DNA from: Escherichia phage vB_EcoM_G2285
Direction: 5' to 3' (one strand)
Sequence record: MK327933.1
Length of the DNA stretch: 64,000 bases
The stretch's first letter is position 1, and each line of letters begins with the position of its first letter. Under the pieces are notes generated by a model that saw only the letters and a program-made list of their open reading frames with translations, had not been told where the DNA came from and searched no databases. Made by a program: the position numbers and the translations under genes. Shown here piece by piece: positions 2,520 through 33,703 of the stretch.

Positions 2520-3620
2520 TTACGCTGTGAAGATTTTATCCCACATCGCAACAACTGCATCTCGATTATACTTCTTCCATACTGCTTCAGCACGTTTAAC
2601 TCGAGCTTCGTATGTGTCAGTGAATTCTAATACAGCTTTTGTGTAAAGCGCAACTACTTCTTTCTTAGGAGTAGAGGAATCAATTTCTACACGCACAGTA
2701 TCTGGGTCGTATTCGAATGTCGCATGAGGATAATCCTTAAAAACTAACTGGATTACAGGGACACCTTTAGAGATGGCTTCAATAGAACTATTCTCTACTG
2801 TACCTGTGTCAGGACACGTATTAATAAGTGCTTTAGCTGTTTTAAGACGTTCCATGATTTCACTGTGTGGAGCATCAATAATAACAGGATATTTAGCTGG
2901 TGGTGCCCATTTACTAGGACAATAACCAATACCATTTTCGCCTAGTGCTTTAATCGCTTCAAGAGCAACATCAGTACGACGCATTTTAGTGTCATAACGT
3001 TGTGCACTAATAATCAGATCAGTCGCCGGAAGAACTTCAGGTTTCTCATTCAAACAAATAACCGGATAATCTTCGGCTTCAAACAACGGATTTGCTCGCC
3101 AATAATCATAATCGATTTTGTCAGTCAGACCTGAAGTCATATAACAATATTTGCGTTCAAATTCACGGAAGGCTTTAGTAGGAGCATAACTCTTACCACC
3201 ATTCTTATGAATTTGAATAGTCTGGTCCCAAATTTGAACAATGCCGCGAGATACCGGTTCAAATGGTGTTGCCATAAAATTCTTATGAACTTTAGAGAGA
3301 CCTGCGTCTTTAATTGCCTGAACGGTTAGTTTAGTCGGTTCCATAGTAACAACAAAATCGTATTCATGGATGCCGGCTAGTTCAACAATCTTACGAGCCA
3401 TAGTATAACTCATACCTAGACTGAATTTAGTCAGATGACCAACAGGATGGTGTGTAACTTTCCAGTCACCAAACGTGTCATTATCAAAGCCGATATAATC
3501 AATATCAGCACCGATGGACACAAGATATTTCAACACATTTAAATGTACTGCTTCAAGACCACCTTGTACACGGTCAGGATTAAATGGGACCGCACGAGAT
3601 GGGATAAACATAACTTTCAT
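2520..3620 (-). CDS. GT-B (GT4-like) glycosyltransferase, candidate DNA sugar transferase
   Basis: 366 aa; C-terminal E-x7-E-type motif TVENSSIEAISKGVPVI typical of GT4 donor-binding domain; N-terminal MKVMFIP..GG..A Rossmann start. Confidence 0.65.
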   Translation of the reverse strand: MKVMFIPSRAVPFNPDRVQGGLEAVHLNVLKYLVSIGADIDYIGFDNDTFGDWKVTHHPVGHLTKFSLGMSYTMARKIVELAGIHEYDFVVTMEPTKLTVQAIKDAGLSKVHKNFMATPFEPVSRGIVQIWDQTIQIHKNGGKSYAPTKAFREFERKYCYMTSGLTDKIDYDYWRANPLFEAEDYPVICLNEKPEVLPATDLIISAQRYDTKMRRTDVALEAIKALGENGIGYCPSKWAPPAKYPVIIDAPHSEIMERLKTAKALINTCPDTGTVENSSIEAISKGVPVIQLVFKDYPHATFEYDPDTVRVEIDSSTPKKEVVALYTKAVLEFTDTYEARVKRAEAVWKKYNRDAVVAMWDKIFTA

Positions 3621-3634
3621 AATTAAGCCTTATT

Positions 3635-3663
3635 AAAATTAAAATGAAGCTCCCGAAGGAGCT
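3635..3663 (-). terminator. rho-independent terminator (stem AGCTCC / GGAGCT, TTCG loop, U-rich tail)
   Basis: perfect palindrome agctcccgaaggagct overlapping gp39 stop, followed on minus strand by TCATTTTAATTTT. Confidence 0.5.
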
Positions 3664-5483
3664 TAGGACATCCATTCTTTACGAAGTTCTGAATCATCAC
3701 CCAACAACATTTCAAAGAGTTCTTTCCAATTTTCAGGAAGTTTAACTACGTCGTACACAGGGTTCTGAATCATTTCACGATACTCTGACTTTTCAAGGGA
3801 GCCTAATCCCTTGATGTATCGAATACTATGCTTAGGCAGTGTATCTTTAACTTCTTCATACTCAGCTACAGTATAAAACCATTTTTGAGTTTTGCCAATT
3901 TGTGCAATAATTACAGGTGTTTTAACAAAGCGAATACGTCCTTGTTCAAACAATTCGGGCCAATTACTAAAGAAAGCAAGCAAAGACGGATAAATACTTC
4001 CAAGACCGTCATGATCGGCATCGGTCATAATTGCAATATTACGATAGTTCGTATTCTCTGCCTTTTCACCAAGAATAAGACCTGTGATAGCACAGATATC
4101 AAAGAGCTCTTTGTTCTTCATCATATCAGCATATGACATACCCCAGCTATTCATCACCTTACCGCGTAATGGGAATCCGCCGTGTAGTTCACGGTCACGA
4201 ACATCAATGAGATAACCAATTGCCGAATCACCTTCTGTTAAGAACAATGTCGTATCTGCATCTTTACCACATTGGTTAGCTTTAATATGCTTATGAACCT
4301 TAGCTTTAGTTGCCTTTTTAGCTGCTTTAGTTTCTGCAGCCTTTTCTGCCGCCAATTTACGAGCTAATGCGGCTTCAATTATAGGCATTAAAACTGCTTC
4401 AGAATTCAAAATATTTTTTGCCAATTTTTTGGTATCTAATTTAATATGCGTCCGAATTTCGCCATAAGGACTTGTTAAACGCTCTTTGGTTTGGGAATCA
4501 AAACGAAGGTTCTTCATTCCACGAACGAACATTAAGAGAGTGAGACATTCCTTGATGCGCGCTTTAGTCACGTCGATTTTATATTTGCGTTTAATAGCCG
4601 GAATTAATTCTTCGCAAATGTCGTCCATCACACATTCAATGTGATGACCACCATTTTTAGTATGGATGTTATTCACATAAGTTAAATGACGGAAGCCATC
4701 TGGTGACCGACTAATGGCAATAGAGCATCCGTCTTGTTCTTGAATGATGGTCTCTTCATCAAATTGTTTAGCAAACTTCTTAAAGTTACCTTGAATCTTT
4801 TTGCCATTAAATTTAAATTCAATACCAGGATAAACGACTGCCAATGTTTGGAGCCGGTCTATAGTAATATCTTGGTATATTTTTTCAAATTGATTCATTT
4901 CAAAATGAGAGAAATCAGGAATAAACTCGACCTTAGTCCCGTTGTTTTTAGACGGCTTAGATTTCCAAGAAATATTATCAGCATTATTAGAACAATTAAC
5001 TGTCAATTCATTTTTACCATCTGAAGTAGTGCCAACAAAAGAGACAGAAAAAATATTTGTTAATGAAGAACCGACACCGTTTTGTCCACCCGTAACACGT
5101 TCTTTGTCGTCACCAAAGTTGCCACCGGCTTTTGTACGTGTCCACGCCGCAACTGGTCCTGGAATTTCTTCTCCTTCAGGAGTAATAACTGTTTCTTGAG
5201 GAATACCTCGACCATTATCTTCAACAGTCACTTTATTAGAATTTAAATCAATACTAACGGAAATTTTATTAGCATATTTGAAATTGGTTCGAATAGCTTC
5301 GTCTACCGAGTTGTCAATAATTTCATCAATTAATTTGAGAACACCTGCAACATATTTAACCTTTTTAAATTCACCAAATAGGAAACGTTCTTGTTCTTCA
5401 TTGGCAACACTTCCAATATACATGCCAGGACGCTTCAAACAATGCTCTTTATCAGATAGCATTTCAATTTTATTATCAATCAT
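3663..5483 (-). CDS. 39: DNA topoisomerase II large subunit (gene 39 with gene 60 fused, GyrB-like ATPase)
   Basis: HCLKRPGMYIGS GyrB-type motif; ~606 aa continuous ORF; start set at ATG 5483 (track start 5498 is TTG). Confidence 0.85.
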   Translation of the reverse strand: MIDNKIEMLSDKEHCLKRPGMYIGSVANEEQERFLFGEFKKVKYVAGVLKLIDEIIDNSVDEAIRTNFKYANKISVSIDLNSNKVTVEDNGRGIPQETVITPEGEEIPGPVAAWTRTKAGGNFGDDKERVTGGQNGVGSSLTNIFSVSFVGTTSDGKNELTVNCSNNADNISWKSKPSKNNGTKVEFIPDFSHFEMNQFEKIYQDITIDRLQTLAVVYPGIEFKFNGKKIQGNFKKFAKQFDEETIIQEQDGCSIAISRSPDGFRHLTYVNNIHTKNGGHHIECVMDDICEELIPAIKRKYKIDVTKARIKECLTLLMFVRGMKNLRFDSQTKERLTSPYGEIRTHIKLDTKKLAKNILNSEAVLMPIIEAALARKLAAEKAAETKAAKKATKAKVHKHIKANQCGKDADTTLFLTEGDSAIGYLIDVRDRELHGGFPLRGKVMNSWGMSYADMMKNKELFDICAITGLILGEKAENTNYRNIAIMTDADHDGLGSIYPSLLAFFSNWPELFEQGRIRFVKTPVIIAQIGKTQKWFYTVAEYEEVKDTLPKHSIRYIKGLGSLEKSEYREMIQNPVYDVVKLPENWKELFEMLLGDDSELRKEWMS

Positions 5484-6159
5484 TAGATTTTCTCTCAAAT
5501 TGCATGACTATATTTTTGTATGAACCTTCCGGAAATCCACGTTTAATGCTTTCTTTAGCAAATTTCCCAACCTTTGGTTTATCCAATTCTAACCATAATT
5601 TATATAAAGCAGATTCATATTCCCATACAGGACTTTTACGATTTTTAAGCCCACACTTTATAAGCGCTTCCTTTGTATGTTTCTTATTATAAAATGGATT
5701 GTTTTTGCCACTCATTGCTTTAGAATGTTCCGGGCGCTTAATTCCATACATCGGATTAAGATTGCCTTTCTTGATAATGGATTGTAGTTCAATAGTTTCT
5801 TCAGAGTGATTGTGTCCATAAAATGGATTTAACTCTTTTGAAACATCCATACCAAAACACCCATCGACTGTGGCATAAGACATGTTGAAAAATTTTTCAG
5901 ATTTAACCACATTATGCAATTTCTGGTAATACAACTCACAAAACGTCGCTTCTTCCCGTGTATCAAATTCGCCAATAATACATGAATCAAATAAATGAGG
6001 ATTATCTTTTATCTCTTTATCATAAATTTGTTTATATTTTTTCGACTTTACCGTACCATGATAGTAATTGTTTGTATGTTTATCAAGATAAGTAGACCCT
6101 ATATAAAACGGTGGCAACTTATCGCCTGTGTATATTGTTAAGTATGTTATGTATTTCAT
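5476..6159 (-). CDS. GIY-YIG homing endonuclease (Seg-like)
   Basis: N-terminal YLTIYTGDKLPPFYIGST GIY-YIG motif; NPxYG (NUMOD-like) repeats; C-terminal DNA-binding region. Confidence 0.7.
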   Translation of the reverse strand: MKYITYLTIYTGDKLPPFYIGSTYLDKHTNNYYHGTVKSKKYKQIYDKEIKDNPHLFDSCIIGEFDTREEATFCELYYQKLHNVVKSEKFFNMSYATVDGCFGMDVSKELNPFYGHNHSEETIELQSIIKKGNLNPMYGIKRPEHSKAMSGKNNPFYNKKHTKEALIKCGLKNRKSPVWEYESALYKLWLELDKPKVGKFAKESIKRGFPEGSYKNIVMQFERKSND

Positions 6160-23310: not shown

Positions 23311-23859
23311 TTAACGAGCCCATTTGATGATTTCTGTAATCAAATCATTACGTTCGCTTGCATTAAATCCTATAACTTTGTTAGCACCATCATGATTAAG
23401 TAATTGATACGTTTGGATTTCGTTATGAATTGCAAACTCTTCAAAATATGAAATGACTGTATTAAAACCGAATGAAGACAAAGTAATAAGGTCGTCTTCA
23501 AAACTTTCAGTCATTTCGTTACGTGTTAAAATAATTGTGAACACATCATGGTTTTGGCAAAGACGAACATAATCCTGTTCATAAACGTCAAGAACCGAGT
23601 CCGCATCTTGTCGAATACGTCCATAAACCCAGTTACTAATATATCCACGGTCTAACAGATAAATCTTAGTAGGGTCTAAATAATTCAACATCGTTTCGAA
23701 ACAACCAACTTCATTTCGAGACTTAACATCGAAACGTCCATCAACTGTTCGTTTAGGGAAATCAATCTTTACATATCTTTCACTAATTTCCATTATGTCA
23801 TTAATGAAAGTTGTTTTACCAGCATTATCCGGGCCATCTACTAAAATAATTTTAGCCAT
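23311..23859 (-). CDS. P-loop nucleotide kinase-like protein (dNMP/thymidylate-kinase fold)
   Basis: 182 aa; Walker A VDGPDNAGKTT, downstream LLDRGY (DRY-like) motif. Confidence 0.5.
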   Translation of the reverse strand: MAKIILVDGPDNAGKTTFINDIMEISERYVKIDFPKRTVDGRFDVKSRNEVGCFETMLNYLDPTKIYLLDRGYISNWVYGRIRQDADSVLDVYEQDYVRLCQNHDVFTIILTRNEMTESFEDDLITLSSFGFNTVISYFEEFAIHNEIQTYQLLNHDGANKVIGFNASERNDLITEIIKWAR

Positions 23860-23860
23860 T

Positions 23861-24760
23861 TTATTCCTCGATTACGACATCTTCATATTTAGGTATATTA
23901 TACGGTGAAGAAATTAAAGCATTAAAGTAGATGAACTCACCAAGACCTGGATGGAATACTTCTTCAGGATTTTCGAAATATTGAATCTTCGGACGTCCTT
24001 TAAGAATTTGATAGTACTCAGTTTTAGTTGGTTTAAAAATTCGAATCAGCGCTTCTTCAGGATACTTATTTCTGTCGAAGCTATTATTTGGATCGGTTAT
24101 ATAAAGCGGTTGACCTAATTGAATTGCACATTCAACCACTTGTTCAAAACGATAGCATGGGTCACTAATTCGAAACGGATGAAAAATACCATCTAGATGA
24201 ATAGGAGCCAAATCACCTACAAGACGCTGCATGATGGAAGGACGTATAACTTTCTGCGTTACGATAATCTTATTACCATCGGCACCAGCGTTAACCAGCA
24301 CTTCTTTTTGACGTTCATTCAACACAGTAGTTTGAAGTGAACGATTAACCGACAACATGTCGGTTTTTAAGAATTCGTCAATATAAAAACGTGGTTTATT
24401 AGGGTCTGCCGTGATATTGAAATTGAATTCCACATCAAAAGCGCCGTCATATCCAGTGATATCTGTGATTAGAAAATCACAATCATAATAAGCAATTAAT
24501 GAATCAACCACAAATTCATTTTCAGACCAGAAATATTTACGAGTGTTATACGCGTTATCTTTATACCATAATGGAACAAACTTAAATTCCGGGAAAAGAC
24601 GTTCGCATTCTTTAATATCAGATGCATTACGTGGATATGTAATCACATCACCTGGATTAGCACGGTGCAAATGAAGTTGGAAGTTGCCATCCTTAAGGAT
24701 AGCATACTGTCCAGTTTCATAAGACCGCATACTCAAGATTGGTACGCGGAAAATAGCCAT
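23861..24760 (-). CDS. hypothetical protein in the position of T4 beta-glucosyltransferase
   Basis: 299 aa; tightly coupled to flanking genes; no recognised motif. Confidence 0.5.
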   Translation of the reverse strand: MAIFRVPILSMRSYETGQYAILKDGNFQLHLHRANPGDVITYPRNASDIKECERLFPEFKFVPLWYKDNAYNTRKYFWSENEFVVDSLIAYYDCDFLITDITGYDGAFDVEFNFNITADPNKPRFYIDEFLKTDMLSVNRSLQTTVLNERQKEVLVNAGADGNKIIVTQKVIRPSIMQRLVGDLAPIHLDGIFHPFRISDPCYRFEQVVECAIQLGQPLYITDPNNSFDRNKYPEEALIRIFKPTKTEYYQILKGRPKIQYFENPEEVFHPGLGEFIYFNALISSPYNIPKYEDVVIEE

Positions 24761-25476
24761 TAGTCAAGGAATCCTTTAACATAATCAAAATCACGTTCAA
24801 ACACATGGGCACTTACCATGGTATGAGTATAATCACCAACTTCTACACCACATTCGTTAGCGATATAATGAAGTAATTTTCCTTGGAGATAAAAATCCAA
24901 CTGCATAACAACAGCACAGTTCTGGGAACGCATATGACAGTGGGTATAAAGCTTACCATCACGAATATAATAAGTCACTGAGTCAGTACATGGATATTCA
25001 AGCGTTTCGTCCGAATCAAGCAAAGCCTGATCAGAACTTTCTAGAATTTGGAACACAACTCTTCGAGAGTTAGGCTTCTCTTTAAGTTCTTTTAGAAGAG
25101 CTGGTAATTGGGCCGCAATGCGAGGACCATAGAAAGTGTTGAAGTTTGCCGGCAAAACATCTGATTTTGGTTTAGAAATAAATTTAGCGACATTAGGATA
25201 TGCCTTAAACGCTTCTTCTGCGTTGGTACCACCAGAAATCATAAACTTCCAGAAGTCTTCGGCATATTCATAAGAGATGCGGTTAATACGTGGGTCGGTC
25301 ATTTTGAATGATGATGGAGTGTCAACAACTACTGTCATAGACCCAATTTCATTACAACGTCCAATACGAGAATCAGTTACGAATTCCGGGTTTTCTAAAA
25401 TTTCACGATTGACTGCTTTAAAGGCGGTTTGAAAATCTGCGGCTTTGATATATTTCATTGTGTTATGTTTTCCCAT
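24760..25476 (-). CDS. thymidylate-synthase-family pyrimidine hydroxymethylase (gp42-like, divergent)
   Basis: 238 aa; NSRR, YPCTDS (catalytic Cys), HMRSQN blocks of TS/dCMP-hydroxymethylase fold; N-terminal half unlike recalled T4 gp42. Confidence 0.6.
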   Translation of the reverse strand: MGKHNTMKYIKAADFQTAFKAVNREILENPEFVTDSRIGRCNEIGSMTVVVDTPSSFKMTDPRINRISYEYAEDFWKFMISGGTNAEEAFKAYPNVAKFISKPKSDVLPANFNTFYGPRIAAQLPALLKELKEKPNSRRVVFQILESSDQALLDSDETLEYPCTDSVTYYIRDGKLYTHCHMRSQNCAVVMQLDFYLQGKLLHYIANECGVEVGDYTHTMVSAHVFERDFDYVKGFLD

Positions 25477-25505
25477 GTTTACCTCAATACAATTTATTAT
25501 ATACT

Positions 25506-25530
25506 CAATTCATAAAGCTTATTTGAATTT
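25506..25530 (-). promoter_or_regulatory. middle-promoter-like element (MotA-box-like AAGCTTTA, 11 bp, -10 TATAAT)
   Basis: minus AAGCTTTA-TGAATTGAGTA-TATAAT then GAGGTAAACATGG. Confidence 0.4.
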
Positions 25531-25653
25531 CTTAGCGATGTTGATATAACGTAAAGCTTCAGCATCAATACTTCCAAGAACACTATGAAGAAATGCATCA
25601 GCGTAGTATTACAATTGAACAGGTTCTTTAATCACTTTAGCCGCTTTGGTTTT

Positions 25654-25677
25654 AAAAAGGCCCATCAGGGCCTTTTT
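25654..25677. terminator. bidirectional rho-independent terminator
   Basis: perfect palindrome AAAAAGGCCC-ATCA-GGGCCTTTTT, T-runs on both strands. Confidence 0.7.
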
Positions 25678-25754
25678 AAGAATTTGTTCGTTAGTGTTCA
25701 GTTTCGTAGTCAAAATCTCTTCATTAAGTTGGTGGTTAAAAGTTTTTCTAGAAA

Positions 25755-26915
25755 TCATTCCGGGTACCTCAAAGCGTCATCAGAGTTAGTTATATCAATA
25801 ATAGATATAGAGTTTTCTGCTAACCCGGTTTTAGATAATTGACGTTTATAATATCTTTCACAATATGTACACGTCGTCCCGCAGATTTCATTAGCACAAT
25901 CGAAATCTGGATGTCTGAACCACCTTTTTTCTAAAAAGCCATCTAACAAAGAGGTTTCAATATTTACTGTATGTGAAAACTCTGTCTCATTTTCAAGAGT
26001 GAAAATGGTCTCTAAAGGCTTCCACAGTTCTAACAAATTACCTTCAAACTTTTCAGAAGCATAAGCTTCAAGAACTTTCAAAATGTAGTCTGTGCTACCT
26101 GTACGTCCTGAAACTTTGAATTGAGTGATACCAATATCATTATAAAGTTTCAAATCTTGAGGACGAACAAAACGAGTTCTCAACCAGTTAAATGGATCTG
26201 TATCACGAGCTTTAATACAGTGCTGCATTGGATATCCATTTAAAGATTTGGCATCATCAGCTGTAACATCAGTACTATGGAAAATATAGCAAGAGTCACG
26301 ATAACTACAATGTGTTGTATACCCTTTACCAGCATTAGAACAGAACTCATTTACAAGAACTTCAAATATTATATTGTTCTTATTGCAAAACTCTGCTGCA
26401 CGCTTCAGGAAAGAAACTGAACGGTTCTTATGAATTCCACAGCAGACCTTTTTGATATTATATTGGTCATGCAAGTATTTGATTTGAGTTACAGCATCGA
26501 CATGTAGAATTGTTGAAACTTCAATCTCAATATCTTTATTGACTTCACGAACAATTTCCATAACAACAGGGTTAGCGATAGTAATACGCCATACGCCTAT
26601 TGACCAAAGATACTGAACATAATCCTGAATAGCTTTCTTCTTCCACTCAACTAGTTCTCTTTTTGAACCAGGATTTATCGTGTTGAGTGTATAGTTAAAG
26701 CAAATACCTAATTCGTTACAACGTTTAACGTAATCTTCTAACATCTTTTTGTCAACGTCAGGAAGCCTAAAATCAGGTCTGGCTGCTACAAAAGCCATTT
26801 CTCTTGTAGAGCCGTATACTTCGTTTATCAAGCTATTAGGATAAGTTTTATTGAGCTCTACGATTTTATCAAGAAGAGCTAAATCAAAATTCGTTCCGAT
26901 TTTAAAAGTATTCAT
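25755..26915 (-). CDS. Cys-rich enzyme of unknown function (weak peptidase-U32-like resemblance)
   Basis: 386 aa; C-terminal C-x4-C-x3-C-x2-C cluster plus VCCG, CSNAG, HCSYRDSC. Confidence 0.5.
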   Translation of the reverse strand: MNTFKIGTNFDLALLDKIVELNKTYPNSLINEVYGSTREMAFVAARPDFRLPDVDKKMLEDYVKRCNELGICFNYTLNTINPGSKRELVEWKKKAIQDYVQYLWSIGVWRITIANPVVMEIVREVNKDIEIEVSTILHVDAVTQIKYLHDQYNIKKVCCGIHKNRSVSFLKRAAEFCNKNNIIFEVLVNEFCSNAGKGYTTHCSYRDSCYIFHSTDVTADDAKSLNGYPMQHCIKARDTDPFNWLRTRFVRPQDLKLYNDIGITQFKVSGRTGSTDYILKVLEAYASEKFEGNLLELWKPLETIFTLENETEFSHTVNIETSLLDGFLEKRWFRHPDFDCANEICGTTCTYCERYYKRQLSKTGLAENSISIIDITNSDDALRYPE

Positions 26916-26972
26916 TTTTTTTGCATCTCACGTTAATTGACGCGATGGTTTTTGCAGGTCTTACTTAAATTA

Positions 26973-27374
26973 TTATAGATTCGGTTTATACGATTTAAAT
27001 GTTTCGAATTCGCCTTTATTCATAAGAGCTTTGAATTCGTCAGGACGCATAGCTTTGTCGTCGATAATCCAATCATATACTGGTTTATGTGTTAGCAAAT
27101 TATGGTACTTCAAACCAATGTTTTCCAAGTTCTGAATCAGACTTGGGAGAATGTCAATTGCTATACGACCAGGACCTACTGACTTCATACCGCGAGCAGT
27201 GTAAAGCGTTATGGTATGCCCTGCATCATACAGGGCATTAATGGCAGACACCATTTCGACGTCAGGTTTGAAGTTCACGTAATCACGATTGTTATTCCAC
27301 TCTGTTATACAATCATCGACATCAAAACAAAGATTAAGCATGTTTTCTACACGGTGCATTAGATTCGTTCCCAT
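26973..27374 (-). CDS. HAD-superfamily phosphatase
   Basis: 133 aa; motif I LCFDVDDCIT (DxDx[TV]) near N-terminus; alternative start 27359 overlaps upstream stop. Confidence 0.6.
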   Translation of the reverse strand: MGTNLMHRVENMLNLCFDVDDCITEWNNNRDYVNFKPDVEMVSAINALYDAGHTITLYTARGMKSVGPGRIAIDILPSLIQNLENIGLKYHNLLTHKPVYDWIIDDKAMRPDEFKALMNKGEFETFKSYKPNL

Positions 27375-29044
27375 TGATGAGTGATATCGCCACCGATTGG
27401 ACGATAGGAAACACCAGTTTCTTTATCAGTTAGTACCCATTTACCAGGATTTTTTGTAATCAGAGTAGCCGTTACAGGTTCTGCTACGTCATAACTAATA
27501 GAGCCGTCCTGAAGTACACGGCCCATATTACGTAATTGCTTAGTCAGAAGTTCCATACCTTTATAATATGCGGCTACCGCTTTAAGTGGATTATTCTTAA
27601 AATAACCACCTAATGCAATCCAGATAATTGCCACTGCCAAATGATGATACTCGTTAAATGAACTCATCTTTCCATATTTGTAAACTAATGGATTGATGTT
27701 AATAGTCACATTACAAGTTGTTTCATCAATAGTAAACTGGCCCCAGGTCGGATTAGCGTTGAATTCATCATAACCTGAAACAGCATAAAGCACTTTAGCT
27801 TCATCATACAATTTTGGCCCGTAAATCTTGGTTTCGCCAAAATATCCACGAGGGTCGATAAACTTGACTTCGCCGTTATCAGTAATCATAGTATTACTGA
27901 AGTTCGGGTCACCATGAATAACAGAGTACTGTCCCTGAGAACGGTTATGATAGCGAATAAGATGTTCTAAAGCTTGTTTCAGCATTGGCTTCAGACGTCC
28001 AATCTTAGTGTAGTTCACATGTGTGATTTTACCAAATGAATCAATCAATGGTTGAATGCTTTCACAACGATCAATAACTTTCGTATAGAATTCTTTAGTG
28101 AAATCACGACGAACAGTTTCAGGACTTACAAAATAAGTGTCTGTGCTGAATTTCAGTGCATCTAAAATTGCATCAACAATTTGTGGACGAGCAAGACTTG
28201 ATTTGGATTTAATATATTCAAATGCCGGCTTACCTTTAATGCGTTCCATTTCAAAGTTATTTTCATTAACAGAAACTAACTGAGGAACTGAATCTGATTT
28301 CACTTTAAGATACCATGAAATCTCATCTTTCTGAAGAGCTCGACCTTGTTCGGTTAATGCGAATTTAGTTACAGTTTCTTCACCAATTTCAACTGCATTA
28401 AAACTACGATTAAGTTCACGAACTTCATGGGCCTTTTCAAGTTTAGGCATATCACCAAGGTCGATGATATTCATAAGCTCTGATTTATTGAATGCGCCGC
28501 TGTAAAGGAATTCTACGAAATCACGTCCTTTGCAGTATTCATGAATTTCCTCATCAGTAGAACCCATGTAGAATTCCCAGTCTTTGAACTGATAAATTCC
28601 TACAACATTACCACCTGTTGAACCTACGTTAGTGATATTTTCACCGTCGAAATTATATCGACATTCGTCACCCTTAACATAGATTGCGTTAACATTCCAA
28701 GACCATGAACCAAAATCTGGAATAATATCACACCAGTTAACAATTACGTTATGGCCGTCTAAATCTTTGTGTAATTTAGCAAGAGCATAAGCAGAACCAT
28801 ACGCTTCATCAACTGTACGAATAGTCACATTGAACCCTTCTTGCTCACAATAAGCTCGAACAGTTTCAGCAAATTTTGAATGAACTACTACAATAATTTC
28901 ATCTGCGCCAAGGTCAGAATAAATTGTATACAAATTGCTCAGAATAGTGTCTTGTTTATAGTTAACAAGCACCTTGGGAATATGATGCGTTATTGGATAT
29001 AAACGAGTTGCCAGACCAGCACCAAGAATAACAGCTTTTTTCAT
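27359..29044 (-). CDS. bifunctional sugar-phosphate nucleotidyltransferase / APH-like kinase
   Basis: 561 aa; N-terminal ILGAGLATRL NTP-transferase motif; C-terminal VIHGDPNFSN..IDPRG kinase catalytic-loop-like motif. Confidence 0.6.
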   Translation of the reverse strand: MKKAVILGAGLATRLYPITHHIPKVLVNYKQDTILSNLYTIYSDLGADEIIVVVHSKFAETVRAYCEQEGFNVTIRTVDEAYGSAYALAKLHKDLDGHNVIVNWCDIIPDFGSWSWNVNAIYVKGDECRYNFDGENITNVGSTGGNVVGIYQFKDWEFYMGSTDEEIHEYCKGRDFVEFLYSGAFNKSELMNIIDLGDMPKLEKAHEVRELNRSFNAVEIGEETVTKFALTEQGRALQKDEISWYLKVKSDSVPQLVSVNENNFEMERIKGKPAFEYIKSKSSLARPQIVDAILDALKFSTDTYFVSPETVRRDFTKEFYTKVIDRCESIQPLIDSFGKITHVNYTKIGRLKPMLKQALEHLIRYHNRSQGQYSVIHGDPNFSNTMITDNGEVKFIDPRGYFGETKIYGPKLYDEAKVLYAVSGYDEFNANPTWGQFTIDETTCNVTININPLVYKYGKMSSFNEYHHLAVAIIWIALGGYFKNNPLKAVAAYYKGMELLTKQLRNMGRVLQDGSISYDVAEPVTATLITKNPGKWVLTDKETGVSYRPIGGDITHQWERI

Positions 29045-29085
29045 GTTGAAGTCCTCATTGGTAAGTAGGAGTATTGTACACTATT

Positions 29086-29229
29086 CTAGTTAAAGCATTC
29101 ATACTTTGCTTGTAGTCCAATCATAATCCATCCAATCACAAGTGTTGGAATCATTACCGGAGCCGTTAAGCTCCAGTAGATAGTCATGAAAAGCATCAAT
29201 AGTAAAAGTCCTATTGTTATTGCTTTCAT
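29086..29229 (-). CDS. 47 aa hydrophobic membrane peptide, absent from ORF track
   Basis: hand translation MKAITIGLLLLMLFMTIYWSLTAPVMIPTLVIGWIMIGLQAKYECFN; ATGA overlap with upstream stop. Confidence 0.4.
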   Translation of the reverse strand: MKAITIGLLLLMLFMTIYWSLTAPVMIPTLVIGWIMIGLQAKYECFN

Positions 29230-29861
29230 TGTTCGCCTCGTAACATGGCACCTAGTGCACCGCCTGGATGGAACTTAAGGAAGTCATTAGAGGTAAATCC
29301 ACGTTCAGACGAAAGGTTGATAGCAAACGTATCGATAAGCGCTAACAACAATGTAGTTGACATCGTCGGAGCTAAAGAGTTCTCGTCAACTTCTACCGCG
29401 ATACCGGTACAGAACGTATAATCAAAAAGAGCTTCGTATTCTTGTGGAATGTCTGGGTTACAATGCAACAGAATCTGTTTGACGTTCGGACGAATCATTT
29501 TAAGATGCTTAGCCACGCCTATCATTTCTTCAGTCTTACCAGAACGACTGATGTGAACTAATACATCATTAGGTGCAATAAATCCTGCATCACCGTGAGA
29601 ATAATGCCCAGTGTTCAAGTACATACTCGGGATACCGAGTGAAGCAAATGTCTCAGAAGCTTTAGTTGCGATATTAGCATTCTTACCAACACCTGTAATA
29701 ATTACTCGGCTTTCATAATTACTAAGTCCAGGGCGTCGAAGAGTTTCTAGAATAGCATTATAACGAGCAGGGTTTTGACTAATTACTTCGGCCATAGTGG
29801 CCAAAGAAGAAGCTTGTTTTATGATTGCGTCAATAGCGATAGTAATAGGAGTAGTTTTCAT
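29226..29861 (-). CDS. SIS-domain sugar-phosphate isomerase (arabinose-5-phosphate isomerase-like)
   Basis: 211 aa; ITGVGKNANIATK, HGDAGFI, ISRSGKTEE, APTMSTT, FHPGGALG match KdsD/GutQ SIS-domain blocks. Confidence 0.7.
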   Translation of the reverse strand: MKTTPITIAIDAIIKQASSLATMAEVISQNPARYNAILETLRRPGLSNYESRVIITGVGKNANIATKASETFASLGIPSMYLNTGHYSHGDAGFIAPNDVLVHISRSGKTEEMIGVAKHLKMIRPNVKQILLHCNPDIPQEYEALFDYTFCTGIAVEVDENSLAPTMSTTLLLALIDTFAINLSSERGFTSNDFLKFHPGGALGAMLRGEQ

Positions 29862-29901: not shown

Positions 29902-30905
29902 TCAAAAATCGAACATATCGAACAGAGATGCTTTCTTCTCGTAATCGAGTTTCGCTGCTGATGTGAATCCTTCAAGTGGTTTAATAAATGTCTTCTCAAG
30001 GAGAACAGTGTAGTCCATCCAATGAAGTACATCGTCTTTAATTAAATCTGTGATTTCAGTACCAGAAGGCCATGCGATACATTTATCACCGAATGGGTTT
30101 CCTTCACGTAAAGGCAGAACATATACTTTTTCACCTTCTACAACTTGCGGTGCATCGATATTACCTTTGATAGCCCGGTTATACGTCAGAATTCCACGAA
30201 TATGGAACGGGCATTTAGGACCAGGGAATCCACCGACGTCATATTTAGCAATGTTATTCGCAGAAGATACCGACGCGATGCTAATATAATTCAATTGACG
30301 GAATTCTTTTTCAAACTCTTTAAAATATTCTTGTAATGATTCTTCGCCTTCCTGAAGCATACGACGAATACATTCCTTAAGAGCTTTCTGTACTGCTTTA
30401 GGAGTCGAAGATTTCTGAGTCTCTAGACCCATGATTTTAAGCTTAGGTTCAGCGTATCTGGTTCCTTCCATATCCCACACGTTTAATGCATAACGTTTCT
30501 TACCAGTCCAGAATCCACCAATACCTTTAGAACCAAGCGGAGGACCAGCAATAGCTTCTCGGTCCATGAACATCAAATGTTGTTTATTGTTCATGTATTC
30601 ACACATTTCACGGAAACCTCTATCAATAGCTGGTTCCATACGTTCACGTGCAAACTTATCTAAGAAGTCTACCCAATGGTTGGTATCACGGAATTTAGAT
30701 TCACCAACCTTATCAATAATTTTATCTGCAGATACGTAAATGGAGTCTGTATCACCATAAAGAACGAAAGCTTCACCTTCTGTACCACAAACTTCATTCA
30801 GATATTCATTAACTTTACGTTCAATCCACTGTAAAGCCATTTGACCAAATGTTGTGATTGCAGTAGCATTACGCAAATCGTAATAACGGAACCAAACGTT
30901 ACCCA
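29902..30905 (-). CDS. 43: DNA polymerase gp43, cistron B exon 2 (palm/thumb, YGDTDS)
   Basis: translation from GNVWFRYYDLRNATAIT through YGDTDS to ..FDMFDF matches recalled RB69/T4 gp43 C-terminus; 5' boundary set at inferred splice site. Confidence 0.85.
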
Positions 30906-31137
30906 CATTATGTTCGACTGAGGTCGTTAATCTCAGCCCGGAATTATATCCAGCTGCATGTCGCCATGCAGAGCAGACTATATCATCATCTTTATAGATG
31001 CTATGCGCTTCCACCCACTTGGGCGTACTCCTTTCGGATAGTCGTTGCACGTTCCTCATAGAGGCTTCGCTCAGGATTGTCTACTAGAGATGTCCCCTGA
31101 ATTCACATAGTTTAAAGTGCGCCGAGTTATTTGGTTA
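30906..31137 (-). ncRNA. group I intron (td/nrdD-like, ORF-less, 232 nt) in gene 43
   Basis: interrupts motif B codons (..LYGAL | GNVWF..); core elements CTCTAGTAGACAATCC and GATATAGTCTGCTCTGCATGGCGACATGCAGC; starts TAA after exon U, ends ..CATAATG. Confidence 0.75.
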
Positions 31138-31306
31138 ACGCACCATACAGACTATTAATAAGCAATTTACGGTTAATCTGAGCCGTATTACCTGCTACTT
31201 CAGCCAATTCGCAGTTTTTAAGATGTTGTTCTAAATCAGCTTTGCTTAAGGACTTGAGATAAGAAATTTCATCTTGTGAAAAGTCTTGAGTGTATGTTAA
31301 ATTCAT
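31138..31306 (-). CDS. 43: DNA polymerase gp43, cistron B exon 1 (motif B)
   Basis: ATG overlapping HEG stop (TAATG); encodes MNLTYTQDF..NTAQINRKLLINSLYGA, the polymerase K-x3-NSxYG region. Confidence 0.7.
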
Positions 31307-32127
31307 TATATTTTATTCCTACAGTTATCAAAGTGCCAACGTTTCATACCAGATAATATACCTTCTTTACCACAGTGCGGACACGTTGCTTTAATCTCTT
31401 TAGCTTTAGCCCAGTATTCTTTCTTAGAGTCTGAAAGGGCCTTATTATGGGCTTCCGAATTGGTTTTGCCTAATCTTGTTTTAACTATATTAGGATTCTC
31501 TGAAATTCTTTGCTTCATCCTAGAAGACTGTTTAGAACGTTGTTCTTTCGACCAGCCATCAGATAAAACTTTCTTTTGTTCTTCAGTTTTGGTTGTACCG
31601 AAGAGATGGGATTTATTTTTAGAATAGTATTCTTTGAGACCTATAGATTGTTTTAACGAAGTTTCAGCAGAATGCTTTGTTCCTATTTTATTTTTACTTG
31701 CTACAGCCCAATTGGCTGCTGCTATGGCTTTATACTTTTCAGGATTTTTGGCTATAGTGATTTTAATAGAATCTGAAACCTTTTTAGCAATCTCTTGGGA
31801 CTTCATAGGATTTGGTAGATTTAAAGAATTTACATAATCCCAACCGCCTTTACCACCAGGATTAAGATTATATGTATCATTTCTTTTTACAAAATCTTTA
31901 TCTACAATTTTAGCTTCAAGGGCATAAGCTTCATCTTCATTATCGAATACTTCCAAAATGGTCTTTTGGAGATTTTCTATACCGTATTTTTCAACGGCTG
32001 CTTTAACAACAGGTCCAGAACCGCGGTAAATATCGTTTTGATTAGACTCATCACACTTATGAACACCTACATAAATTTTACCATTAACGACATTAGTAAT
32101 TTGGTAAACAGTATAAACAGTTTTCAT
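31306..32127 (-). CDS. GIY-YIG homing endonuclease inserted within gene 43
   Basis: VYQITNVVNGKIYVGV GIY-YIG motif; C-terminal CPHCG..MKRWHFDNC zinc finger; start set at ATG with SD GGAGG. Confidence 0.75.
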   Translation of the reverse strand: MKTVYTVYQITNVVNGKIYVGVHKCDESNQNDIYRGSGPVVKAAVEKYGIENLQKTILEVFDNEDEAYALEAKIVDKDFVKRNDTYNLNPGGKGGWDYVNSLNLPNPMKSQEIAKKVSDSIKITIAKNPEKYKAIAAANWAVASKNKIGTKHSAETSLKQSIGLKEYYSKNKSHLFGTTKTEEQKKVLSDGWSKEQRSKQSSRMKQRISENPNIVKTRLGKTNSEAHNKALSDSKKEYWAKAKEIKATCPHCGKEGILSGMKRWHFDNCRNKI

Positions 32128-32153
32128 AATATCCTCCATTAGTTGATAAGACT

Positions 32154-32183
32154 ATAATACCACATCCTTGTGGTATTGTAAAC
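32154..32183 (-). promoter_or_regulatory. early-type promoter for the intragenic endonuclease
   Basis: minus GTTTAC-N18-TATTAT then AGTCTTATCAACTAATGGAGGATATTATG. Confidence 0.45.
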
Positions 32184-33703
32184 TATTTTGAAGCCAAAAT
32201 CTCTTTAATTATTTCAGCATTTCGCTGTGCAGCCAACATGTAGCGCTTATGTTCTTTACGCTGCAAGAATACCTTAGTGATTTCTGTTGGAATCACACCA
32301 TCACGGTCTTTATAATACATCATGCCGTTAGGAGAGCAACTGTACACATCTGAAGGACGTTCGGCGATTGCGTTAATATACTCATGCAGTGGAGCTACTT
32401 TAAACGTTCCTGCTATTGTTTCCGGGCTAATATTCACTTGGCGAATAATACTTGGATACAGAGATGTAAGGTCGAAACTCATTACATATTTGTATCGATT
32501 TGGAATAGGTTCCTTAACAAAAGCGCCAGGATAAGGTTGAACCGGGTGAGAACGACCTTGTGGAATCACCTTGTTCTGCTCTTTAAGGCTATTAAAAATA
32601 ATAGCATCCCATGTTTTAATTGGGCTAAACACAGATTGAATCTGTATCTTAGCATAATAACCCATGTCCAAGCTCAAGTTGATGAACTGACGCTTAGCAT
32701 CAATTTGCAATACACGATACACGTCGATAATGTTATAAGAAATATATCGTTGGTGATTGCTTTCACGAAGCTTAGAAATAGGGCCGTCATATTTCAGTTT
32801 ACCAACGTTCAATTCAAATTCTGAAATGTAATCCAGAGAATATGACGGTTGATTGGTAAAAGAGAATTTTTTGTAAAGGTCAATGTAATCAAGAACAGAG
32901 ATACCGAACAATGTAATGATTTCACGAGAACCATACATGTTTTCGATAACTTTAACACGAGTTTTACGATGTGGTGACAACCGTTTTGCTGTGGATTCGC
33001 CAAAAATATTCTTGATTCGGTTATACACATATGGAATATCAAATGACTCAACGTTCCATCCAGTCAAAATGACAGGAGTTTTCTGTTGCCAGAAGTTGAG
33101 ATATTCCATCAACAATTCTTTTTCGTTATCGAACGGCATATAAATGATTTTATCGATAATTTCAGATGGAACTTCATCACCGCCTTGTTCTTGAAGCTTA
33201 GCAGCGATTTCAATAGACCATTCTTCTACATTACCATACGGAGAATTCAATAGATCAAATACATAGAACCTGTCGTCAATTGAGTCATAATGGGTGATAG
33301 CATCAATCGGATGTTTTGCTTGTGACGGCTCAGGGAACCCATCCGGAGATGTTACTTCGATGTCGAAGTTAGCCACACGAATTTTTGTATGGTCGTATTT
33401 GATTTCATAGTTATAAGTGTCAGACAAATACGCCAATTTGAAATCGTCCATGCCAAGTGCTTCAAGTCCGATATCTTCCATGCGTTTAATCCATTGGGAG
33501 GCATCACGCATATTAGCGAACAGCTTACGAGTACACGGCTTACCGTAGATATCGAAATATTTCGTAGCCTGACTTTCTGGACAATGAGCAAACAGTGATG
33601 GTTTATATTCTACTTCACGAGTACGTTCACGGCCATTAGAATCGATGTAACGTTCAAAAATTGAATCACCAATCTGTTCAACCGTTAAGTAAAATTCTTT
33701 CAT
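32183..33703 (-). CDS. 43: DNA polymerase gp43, cistron A (N-terminal and 3'-5' exonuclease domains, motif A)
   Basis: 506 aa; MKEFYLTVEQIGDSIFERYID..FDIEV..YNIIDV..DLTSLYPSII matches recalled RB69 gp43 N-terminal half; ends at in-frame stop. Confidence 0.9.
   Translation of the reverse strand: MKEFYLTVEQIGDSIFERYIDSNGRERTREVEYKPSLFAHCPESQATKYFDIYGKPCTRKLFANMRDASQWIKRMEDIGLEALGMDDFKLAYLSDTYNYEIKYDHTKIRVANFDIEVTSPDGFPEPSQAKHPIDAITHYDSIDDRFYVFDLLNSPYGNVEEWSIEIAAKLQEQGGDEVPSEIIDKIIYMPFDNEKELLMEYLNFWQQKTPVILTGWNVESFDIPYVYNRIKNIFGESTAKRLSPHRKTRVKVIENMYGSREIITLFGISVLDYIDLYKKFSFTNQPSYSLDYISEFELNVGKLKYDGPISKLRESNHQRYISYNIIDVYRVLQIDAKRQFINLSLDMGYYAKIQIQSVFSPIKTWDAIIFNSLKEQNKVIPQGRSHPVQPYPGAFVKEPIPNRYKYVMSFDLTSLYPSIIRQVNISPETIAGTFKVAPLHEYINAIAERPSDVYSCSPNGMMYYKDRDGVIPTEITKVFLQRKEHKRYMLAAQRNAEIIKEILASK

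Follow-up and report, generated by a model that had tools for sequence, protein, structure and literature searches.

The 366-aa GT-B protein encoded beside rIIA in an RB69-like Escherichia phage is probably a second, chain-extending DNA arabinofuranosyltransferase

A gene for a 366-aa protein with the appearance of a glycosyltransferase lies beside rIIA in the genome of Escherichia phage vB_EcoM_G2285, and the locus raises the question of what this protein attaches a sugar to and at which step of DNA decoration it acts. The window, i.e., the whole stretch of 64,000 nucleotides analysed here (MK327933.1), covers the left end of an RB69-like Mosigvirus genome. The proposal of a transferase at this locus is not new: arabinose was detected in RB69 DNA, and ORF003c was put forward as the arabinosyltransferase on the basis of HHpred and Phyre2 (Thomas et al., Viruses 2018), and the structure of such a protein was released in 2025. 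The RB69 cytosine carries beta-D-Araf-(1->3)-alpha-D-Araf ether-linked to 5-hydroxycytosine (Lee et al., NAR 2026); the initial annotation, which was made from the sequence alone, had named hmC as the acceptor, whereas the 2025-2026 papers give 5-hydroxycytosine, not hmC, for RB69-type DNA. Furthermore, the ThyA homolog was identified as a flavin-dependent 5-hydroxy-dCMP synthase, UDP-Araf was found to be the product of the sugar-nucleotide island, RB69 gp46:47 and gp3 were proposed as the first and the second transferase, respectively, and RB69p003 was entered as 'beta-arabinosyltransferase 2' (Lee et al., NAR 2026). In vitro activity was reported only for DLP3 gp76 and gp77, a pair that jointly uses UDP-Araf to attach a third Araf to the DNA of RB69 (Lee et al., NAR 2026). 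Singly, no DLP3 enzyme was active, and plain 5hoC DNA was not a substrate for any of them (Lee et al., NAR 2026), so the order of the transfer steps is still a model. A 2026 AEM paper described two putative arabinosyltransferases in Mosigvirus: the cluster encodes one of them, and the gene for the other lies between rIIA and the topoisomerase gene.

The ORF (2520..3620, minus strand), which corresponds to RB69 ORF003c/gp3 and to the HY126 glycosyltransferase, starts with ATG and has an AAGG ribosome-binding site 9 nt 5′ of it; the reading frame called by the initial annotation is therefore real. On one side it is followed by rIIA.1 (66 aa, 2227-2427) and rIIA (a 737-aa ORF at 1-2214, with the RIIA label taken from related records), and on the other side lies the gene for the GyrB-like large subunit of topoisomerase II (611 aa, 3663-5498). 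The RB69 protein (NP_861693.1) is 99.2% identical over 366 residues with few substitutions and is likewise encoded between rIIA.1 and the topoisomerase gene; the coordinates of the gene are identical to those of RB69ORF003c in RB69 and several relatives. A GC-rich hairpin followed by a T-run (3647..3664, minus strand; a consensus match only) lies between the topoisomerase stop and the transferase start, and may be terminator-like or RNA-stabilising. No sigma-70-like promoter was found by consensus matching between this hairpin and the transferase ATG. Directly downstream of the topoisomerase gene, a 227-aa ORF (5476-6159, minus strand) has NUMOD3 motifs and a GIY-YIG-like N-terminus, as in a Seg-type homing endonuclease; among the 149 Mosigvirus records with a match to this segment, only 9 have the ORF in full length, and the related phage RPN187 lacks it at this site.

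The fold of the 366-aa protein is GT-B and GT4-like. The AlphaFold (AF2) model, built on a 9-sequence family alignment, comprises two Rossmann-like domains with an inter-domain cleft (pLDDT 90.6, pTM 0.87), and it superposes with a TM of 0.96 (9IR0) on the crystal structures of 'phage HY126 glycosyltransferase' (PDB 9IQZ, apo, and 9IR0, with UDP; released 2025-07-16). The HY126 protein is 99% identical to the 366-aa protein, with four substitutions in the alignment (Y158H, G163A, I231V, and S315F), so that nucleotide(-sugar) binding is documented, if indirectly, by the UDP complex 9IR0. The HY126 enzyme is presumably the subject of an article by He et al. in Nat Chem Biol (2026). The nearest solved structures outside its own family belong to GT4, i.e., BshA, PimA, PimB', WaaG, WaaB, PglA, SPS, and tll1591; structure prediction and fold search thus bear out the GT-B assignment first made from the sequence. 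By contrast, the protein is hardly a 'recognisable' glycosyltransferase for family models. Scans of Pfam, even at E<=10, and of NCBIfam each returned zero families, Pfam Glyco_transf_4 and Glycos_transf_1 were not matched at the curated threshold, and the sole PHROG match is PHROG 8302, labelled 'unknown function'. PF13439/PF00534 are carried only by distant relatives of the family, at 15-20% identity.

The comparison with characterised enzymes defines what is shared with GT4 and what is not. The bacterial retaining GT4 enzymes (BshA, PimA, WaaG, and sucrose-phosphate synthase) have in common with the 366-aa protein the GT-B architecture, the N-terminal GG-x-E loop, the Arg/Lys phosphate-binding pair, and the second Glu of the E-x7-E helix. 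The 366-aa protein differs from them in its low identity (10-15%) and absence of a Pfam hit, in the replacement of the first Glu of E-x7-E by an invariant TGTVE276N, and in its proposed substrates, a furanose donor and a DNA-bound sugar acceptor. An enzyme of the T4 agt/bgt type is ruled out: the protein shares no sequence similarity with T4 agt or bgt, and the T4 alpha-glucosyltransferase (PDB 1XV5/1Y6F) and beta-glucosyltransferase are structurally farther from it than bacterial GT4. The T4 enzymes transfer glucose onto 5-hmC, whereas the pathway of the 366-aa protein places arabinofuranose on 5-hydroxycytosine, and unlike the T4 enzymes the 366-aa protein probably acts on a sugar and not on the base.

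The donor-binding helix motif, TVENSSIEAISKGVPVI (codons T274-I290; 2775..2825, minus strand; located by family alignments), sits in the most conserved block of the 9-sequence family alignment. N267-T268-C269, T272-G273-T274-V275-E276, E281-A282-I283-S284, G286, and P288-V289 are invariant in the family. The peptide pointed out in the initial annotation is thus present and conserved, although its description as E-x7-E is incorrect, the real spacing of the two glutamates being E276-x4-E281. In the alignment with Pfam-GT4 relatives that have a true E-x7-E (e.g., KE-TFGISNF-EA), the column of the canonical first Glu is occupied by T272/G273, the invariant E276 lies three residues further on, and E281 is the canonical second Glu, after which the EA[IM]SxGxPV helix is retained. 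The N-terminal GGLE20-23 loop, R208, R214, and E281 align with the residues of these relatives, and the donor-binding residues are all invariant across the 366-aa family. E281 was previously aligned with the ribose-contacting E311 of T4 alpha-GT (Thomas et al. 2018).

The sugar-nucleotide island of the window lies between uvsX and the DNA polymerase gene. On the minus strand it encodes a 182-aa thymidylate-kinase-like nucleotide kinase (23311..23859), which is the immediate neighbour of the gp3 homologs in Acinetobacter phages; a 299-aa protein (23861..24760), which is the intact form of RB69 gp46:47 and the counterpart of DLP3 gp79 and Thanatos TH1_063; a 238-aa ThyA homolog (24760..25476; Pfam Thymidylat_synt), near-identical to PDB 9IQC/9IR2/9IQU, the function of which as 5-hydroxy-dCMP synthase is taken from the literature; and a 386-aa protein of the Peptidase_U32 family in Pfam (25755..26915; RB69 gp50). 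Three further minus-strand genes, identified by Pfam/PHROG and assigned to UDP-arabinofuranose supply from the published pathway, encode a HAD-like phosphatase (26973-27374), a bifunctional nucleotidyltransferase (NTP-transferase)/kinase fusion (27359-29044), and a SIS-domain arabinose-5-phosphate isomerase (29226-29861). The window genome therefore encodes, at 23311-29861, the 5hodCMP synthase, the genes for UDP-Araf synthesis, and a first-transferase candidate.

This candidate is the 299-aa protein, the ORF of which is single and intact here, whereas the RB69 record (AY303349.1 24600-25497) splits it into ORF046c and ORF047c. RB69 gp46:47 was reported to be one ORF split by a sequencing error in the RB69 record, and to be the candidate for the first (alpha) arabinosyltransferase, modelled as GT-B-like (Lee et al., NAR 2026). 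The intact ORF fits the sequencing-error explanation, and the published candidacy for the first transfer contradicts the earlier view that the 366-aa protein is the only glycosyltransferase and only candidate in 64 kb. The 299-aa protein has no sequence link with the 366-aa family (hhalign probability 0.1%) and no meaningful sequence match among PDB chains; its GT-B nature is a candidate assignment from the published model. The Thanatos homolog was reported as a UDP-xylose pyrophosphorylase in vitro (Thanatos paper), and if that report is right, the first arabinose step is left without an assigned enzyme, in conflict with the first-transferase model. The initial annotation had also suggested the 299-aa and 386-aa island proteins as additional transferases; the former suggestion agrees with the published model, whereas the 386-aa ORF is rejected as a transferase by its Peptidase_U32 membership. 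In the literature, the 386-aa protein is listed as a reductase, possibly of a sugar or a heterocycle (Lee et al., NAR 2026).

Beyond the island, the gp43 DNA polymerase of the window is split (29902-33703, minus strand) into a 506-aa N-terminal ORF (32183-33703), comprising the exonuclease domain and the first part of the polymerase domain, and a C-terminal ORF of 385 aa (29902-31059). The halves are about 1.1 kb apart, and the spacer holds a 277-aa GIY-YIG/SegE-like endonuclease ORF (31306-32139), the closest protein relatives of which (41-44% identity) are the GIY-YIG endonucleases splitting the DNA polymerase of Aeromonas phages 25, phiAS4, and Aes508. Past the first 144 nt of the insert, none of 50,697 phage records contains a near-identical DNA sequence. 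In RPN187, gp43 is a single CDS.

The 366-aa family is small and phage-restricted. Word-indexed searching of 5.8 billion clusters yielded 5 members at first and 10 subsequently. In an exhaustive HMMER profile search, 25 proteins among 1.84 billion representatives scored E<=0.001, 8 of them at E<=1e-30, with a weak tail of generic GT4 proteins at 14-22% identity. Whichever member serves as the query, the family is found in 210-211 of the 50,697 phage records, with one copy in Mosigvirus-type Escherichia/Shigella phages and two copies in Acinetobacter T4-like phages; apart from generic GT4 matches at about 15-20% identity, no bacterial members were found. A single record places one member under the organism name Tegunavirus. 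Labels in GenBank are inconsistent and mostly read 'hypothetical protein', although one E. coli phage record has 'putative GDP-mannose-dependent alpha-(1-2)-phosphatidylinositol mannosyltransferase' and several Acinetobacter phage records have 'putative DNA alpha-glucosyltransferase'. Shigella phage JK45 (NC_054940.1 2520-4123) has a full-length transferase and, directly downstream, a 136-aa, 100%-identical copy of its 3′ end, which is either an artefact of assembly or the result of a tandem duplication (about 500 bp).

The members in Acinetobacter phages, DLP3 gp77/gp76 and Maestro 078/077, are 41-43% identical to the 366-aa protein over 99% of its length and keep the invariant motifs. They differ from it in that they are two tandem paralogs inside the island, whereas the window phage has one copy outside it, and in that both DLP3 paralogs are required for a third sugar (beta-1,5), whereas the window phage stops at two. 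In Maestro and DLP3, the gene order of the island is as in the window, the two homologs follow directly after the kinase, and they share the island with this kinase, the 299-aa-type protein, and the ThyA homolog. Relatives thus show the physical linkage that the window lacks, and the tie that had been drawn between the 366-aa protein and an island 20 kb away is strengthened. In an NJ tree (a distance tree without support values), the gp76/gp77 duplication falls within the Acinetobacter lineage with the RB69-type protein outside, which is therefore co-orthologous to both paralogs, and the same tree does not support a specific orthology of RB69 gp3 to DLP3 gp77. The duplication would accordingly appear, from sequence comparison, to be younger than the split from the RB69 lineage. 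Divergent members occur in further surroundings: on JGI metagenome contig Ga0489998_000752 (3040-4224), one adjoins a DNA ligase gene and a DsbA-like gene (dsbA), and in Logan SRR26937416_16191 (450-2482), another is followed immediately by a 299-aa-family gene at 48% identity. Evidently, the gene changes its place among T4-like genomes.

The distribution of the two families bears on the question of which step the 366-aa protein catalyses. The 299-aa family is found in 348 phage records of many genera, spanning Mosigvirus, Dhakavirus, and phages of Klebsiella, Edwardsiella, Yersinia, Pectobacterium, Serratia, Proteus, Providencia, Shewanella, and Acinetobacter. Among its carriers, the 366-aa family is confined to two groups, the Mosigvirus-type coliphages and the Acinetobacter phages. 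All phages with a determined decoration that were compared have the 299-aa homolog, and the copy number of the gp3 family rises with the number of sugars on cytosine: there is no copy in LC53 (one arabinose; 299-aa homolog at 60% identity) or Thanatos (one pentose), one copy in RB69, NP, Bas46, and Bas47 (two arabinoses), and two copies in DLP3 (three arabinoses). The 366-aa protein is read as a chain extender because of this nested copy-number pattern and the DNA-directed, UDP-Araf-dependent activity of the DLP3 paralogs, and it is homologous over its full length to the chain-extending members of the family (RB69 gp3, the HY126 glycosyltransferase, and DLP3 gp76-77). It is therefore probably the second, chain-extending DNA arabinofuranosyltransferase of RB69-like cytosine arabinosylation, a UDP-dependent GT-B enzyme of a small, phage-restricted, GT4-derived family; where the initial annotation had proposed sugar transfer onto hydroxymethylated DNA, the phyletic pattern indicates extension of a DNA-bound arabinose instead.

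Briefly, the island enzymes would make 5-hydroxy-dCMP and UDP-D-arabinofuranose, and a first transferase, proposed to be the 299-aa protein, would set alpha-D-Araf on O5 of 5-hydroxycytosine. The 366-aa enzyme would then bind UDP-Araf in its C-terminal Rossmann domain via the E276/E281 helix, R208, and R214, and transfer a second Araf to O3 of the DNA-bound arabinose, yielding beta-D-Araf-(1->3)-alpha-D-Araf-5-hydroxy-dC. Transfer of Araf from UDP-Araf to arabinosylated DNA by the 366-aa protein is proposed from the activity of DLP3 gp76 and gp77 together with the copy-number correlation; that the protein makes the second transfer by itself, and with which acceptor, linkage, and stereochemical course, is what we infer. 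From a GT4-like scaffold, which is normally retaining, the beta linkage credited to gp3 would be expected only with the beta anomer as donor: such a scaffold predicts retention, and the beta product would then require UDP-beta-D-Araf.

The view of Thomas et al. 2018, to which the initial annotation also inclined, is that the 366-aa protein is the primary transferase, which sets the first arabinose directly onto the modified cytosine, with the 299-aa protein acting elsewhere, e.g., in sugar activation. We consider this unlikely, although no protein of the pathway other than the 366-aa protein has an experimental glycosyltransferase structure with UDP, the 299-aa family has no sequence-detectable glycosyltransferase signature, its Thanatos member was reported as a pyrophosphorylase, and DLP3 gp79 was inactive on 5hoC DNA. 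LC53 and Thanatos make a single arabinose or pentose without the 366-aa family, yet keep the 299-aa protein, and divergent copies are unlikely to have been missed, since the profile search of 1.84 billion representatives gave only 25 relatives; moreover, the copy number climbs with the sugar number, and the DLP3 paralogs use DNA that is already arabinosylated. The requirement for both DLP3 paralogs, neither of which is active alone, in tri-arabinosylation, and the absence of the catalytic first Glu of E-x7-E, could alternatively be explained if the 366-aa protein worked only in a complex, with the 299-aa transferase or as an obligate oligomer, and served as a scaffold or for processivity instead of catalysing the second step independently. 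Such a role would be quite improbable, as the gene is a single copy in RB69-type phages, 20 kb from the island, the donor-binding residues are invariant throughout the family, and the HY126 protein crystallised with UDP by itself. A target other than DNA, such as a host envelope lipid or glycan or a phage protein, as for PimA, WaaG, and BshA, is hardly credible: the best structural neighbours do use lipids, LPS, or small molecules, and one GenBank record names a phosphatidylinositol mannosyltransferase, but the family strictly co-occurs with the arabinosylation island, its Acinetobacter homologs lie inside that island, the DLP3 paralogs modify DNA in vitro, and bacteria have only generic GT4 matches at about 15-20% identity.

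With the 366-aa protein taken as the chain-extending transferase, a more far-reaching proposal may tentatively be advanced, which we regard as doubtful in its entirety: the variant TGTVE276N-x3-E281 may be an adaptation to a furanose donor, the enzyme may be a retaining UDP-beta-D-arabinofuranose:DNA-glycan beta-1,3-arabinofuranosyltransferase, and it may have founded a CAZy-level family of its own, with a single origin from a GT4 ancestor in T4-like phages, that serves as a detachable 'add-one-more-sugar' module, placed in the island in Acinetobacter phages, next to rIIA in Mosigvirus, and next to DNA ligase and dsbA on one metagenomic contig.

As the role was already proposed (2018, 2025-2026) and the structure is solved, the analysis offers no new biology; of practical use is the corrected annotation of a gene labelled 'hypothetical protein' in most GenBank records. 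Whether a phage evades or sets off a given restriction, CRISPR, or glycosylase defence depends on the sugars on its cytosines, and the number of arabinoses matters; in RB69-like therapeutic coliphages, the gene for the 366-aa protein is likely to act as the switch from mono- to di-arabinosylated DNA.
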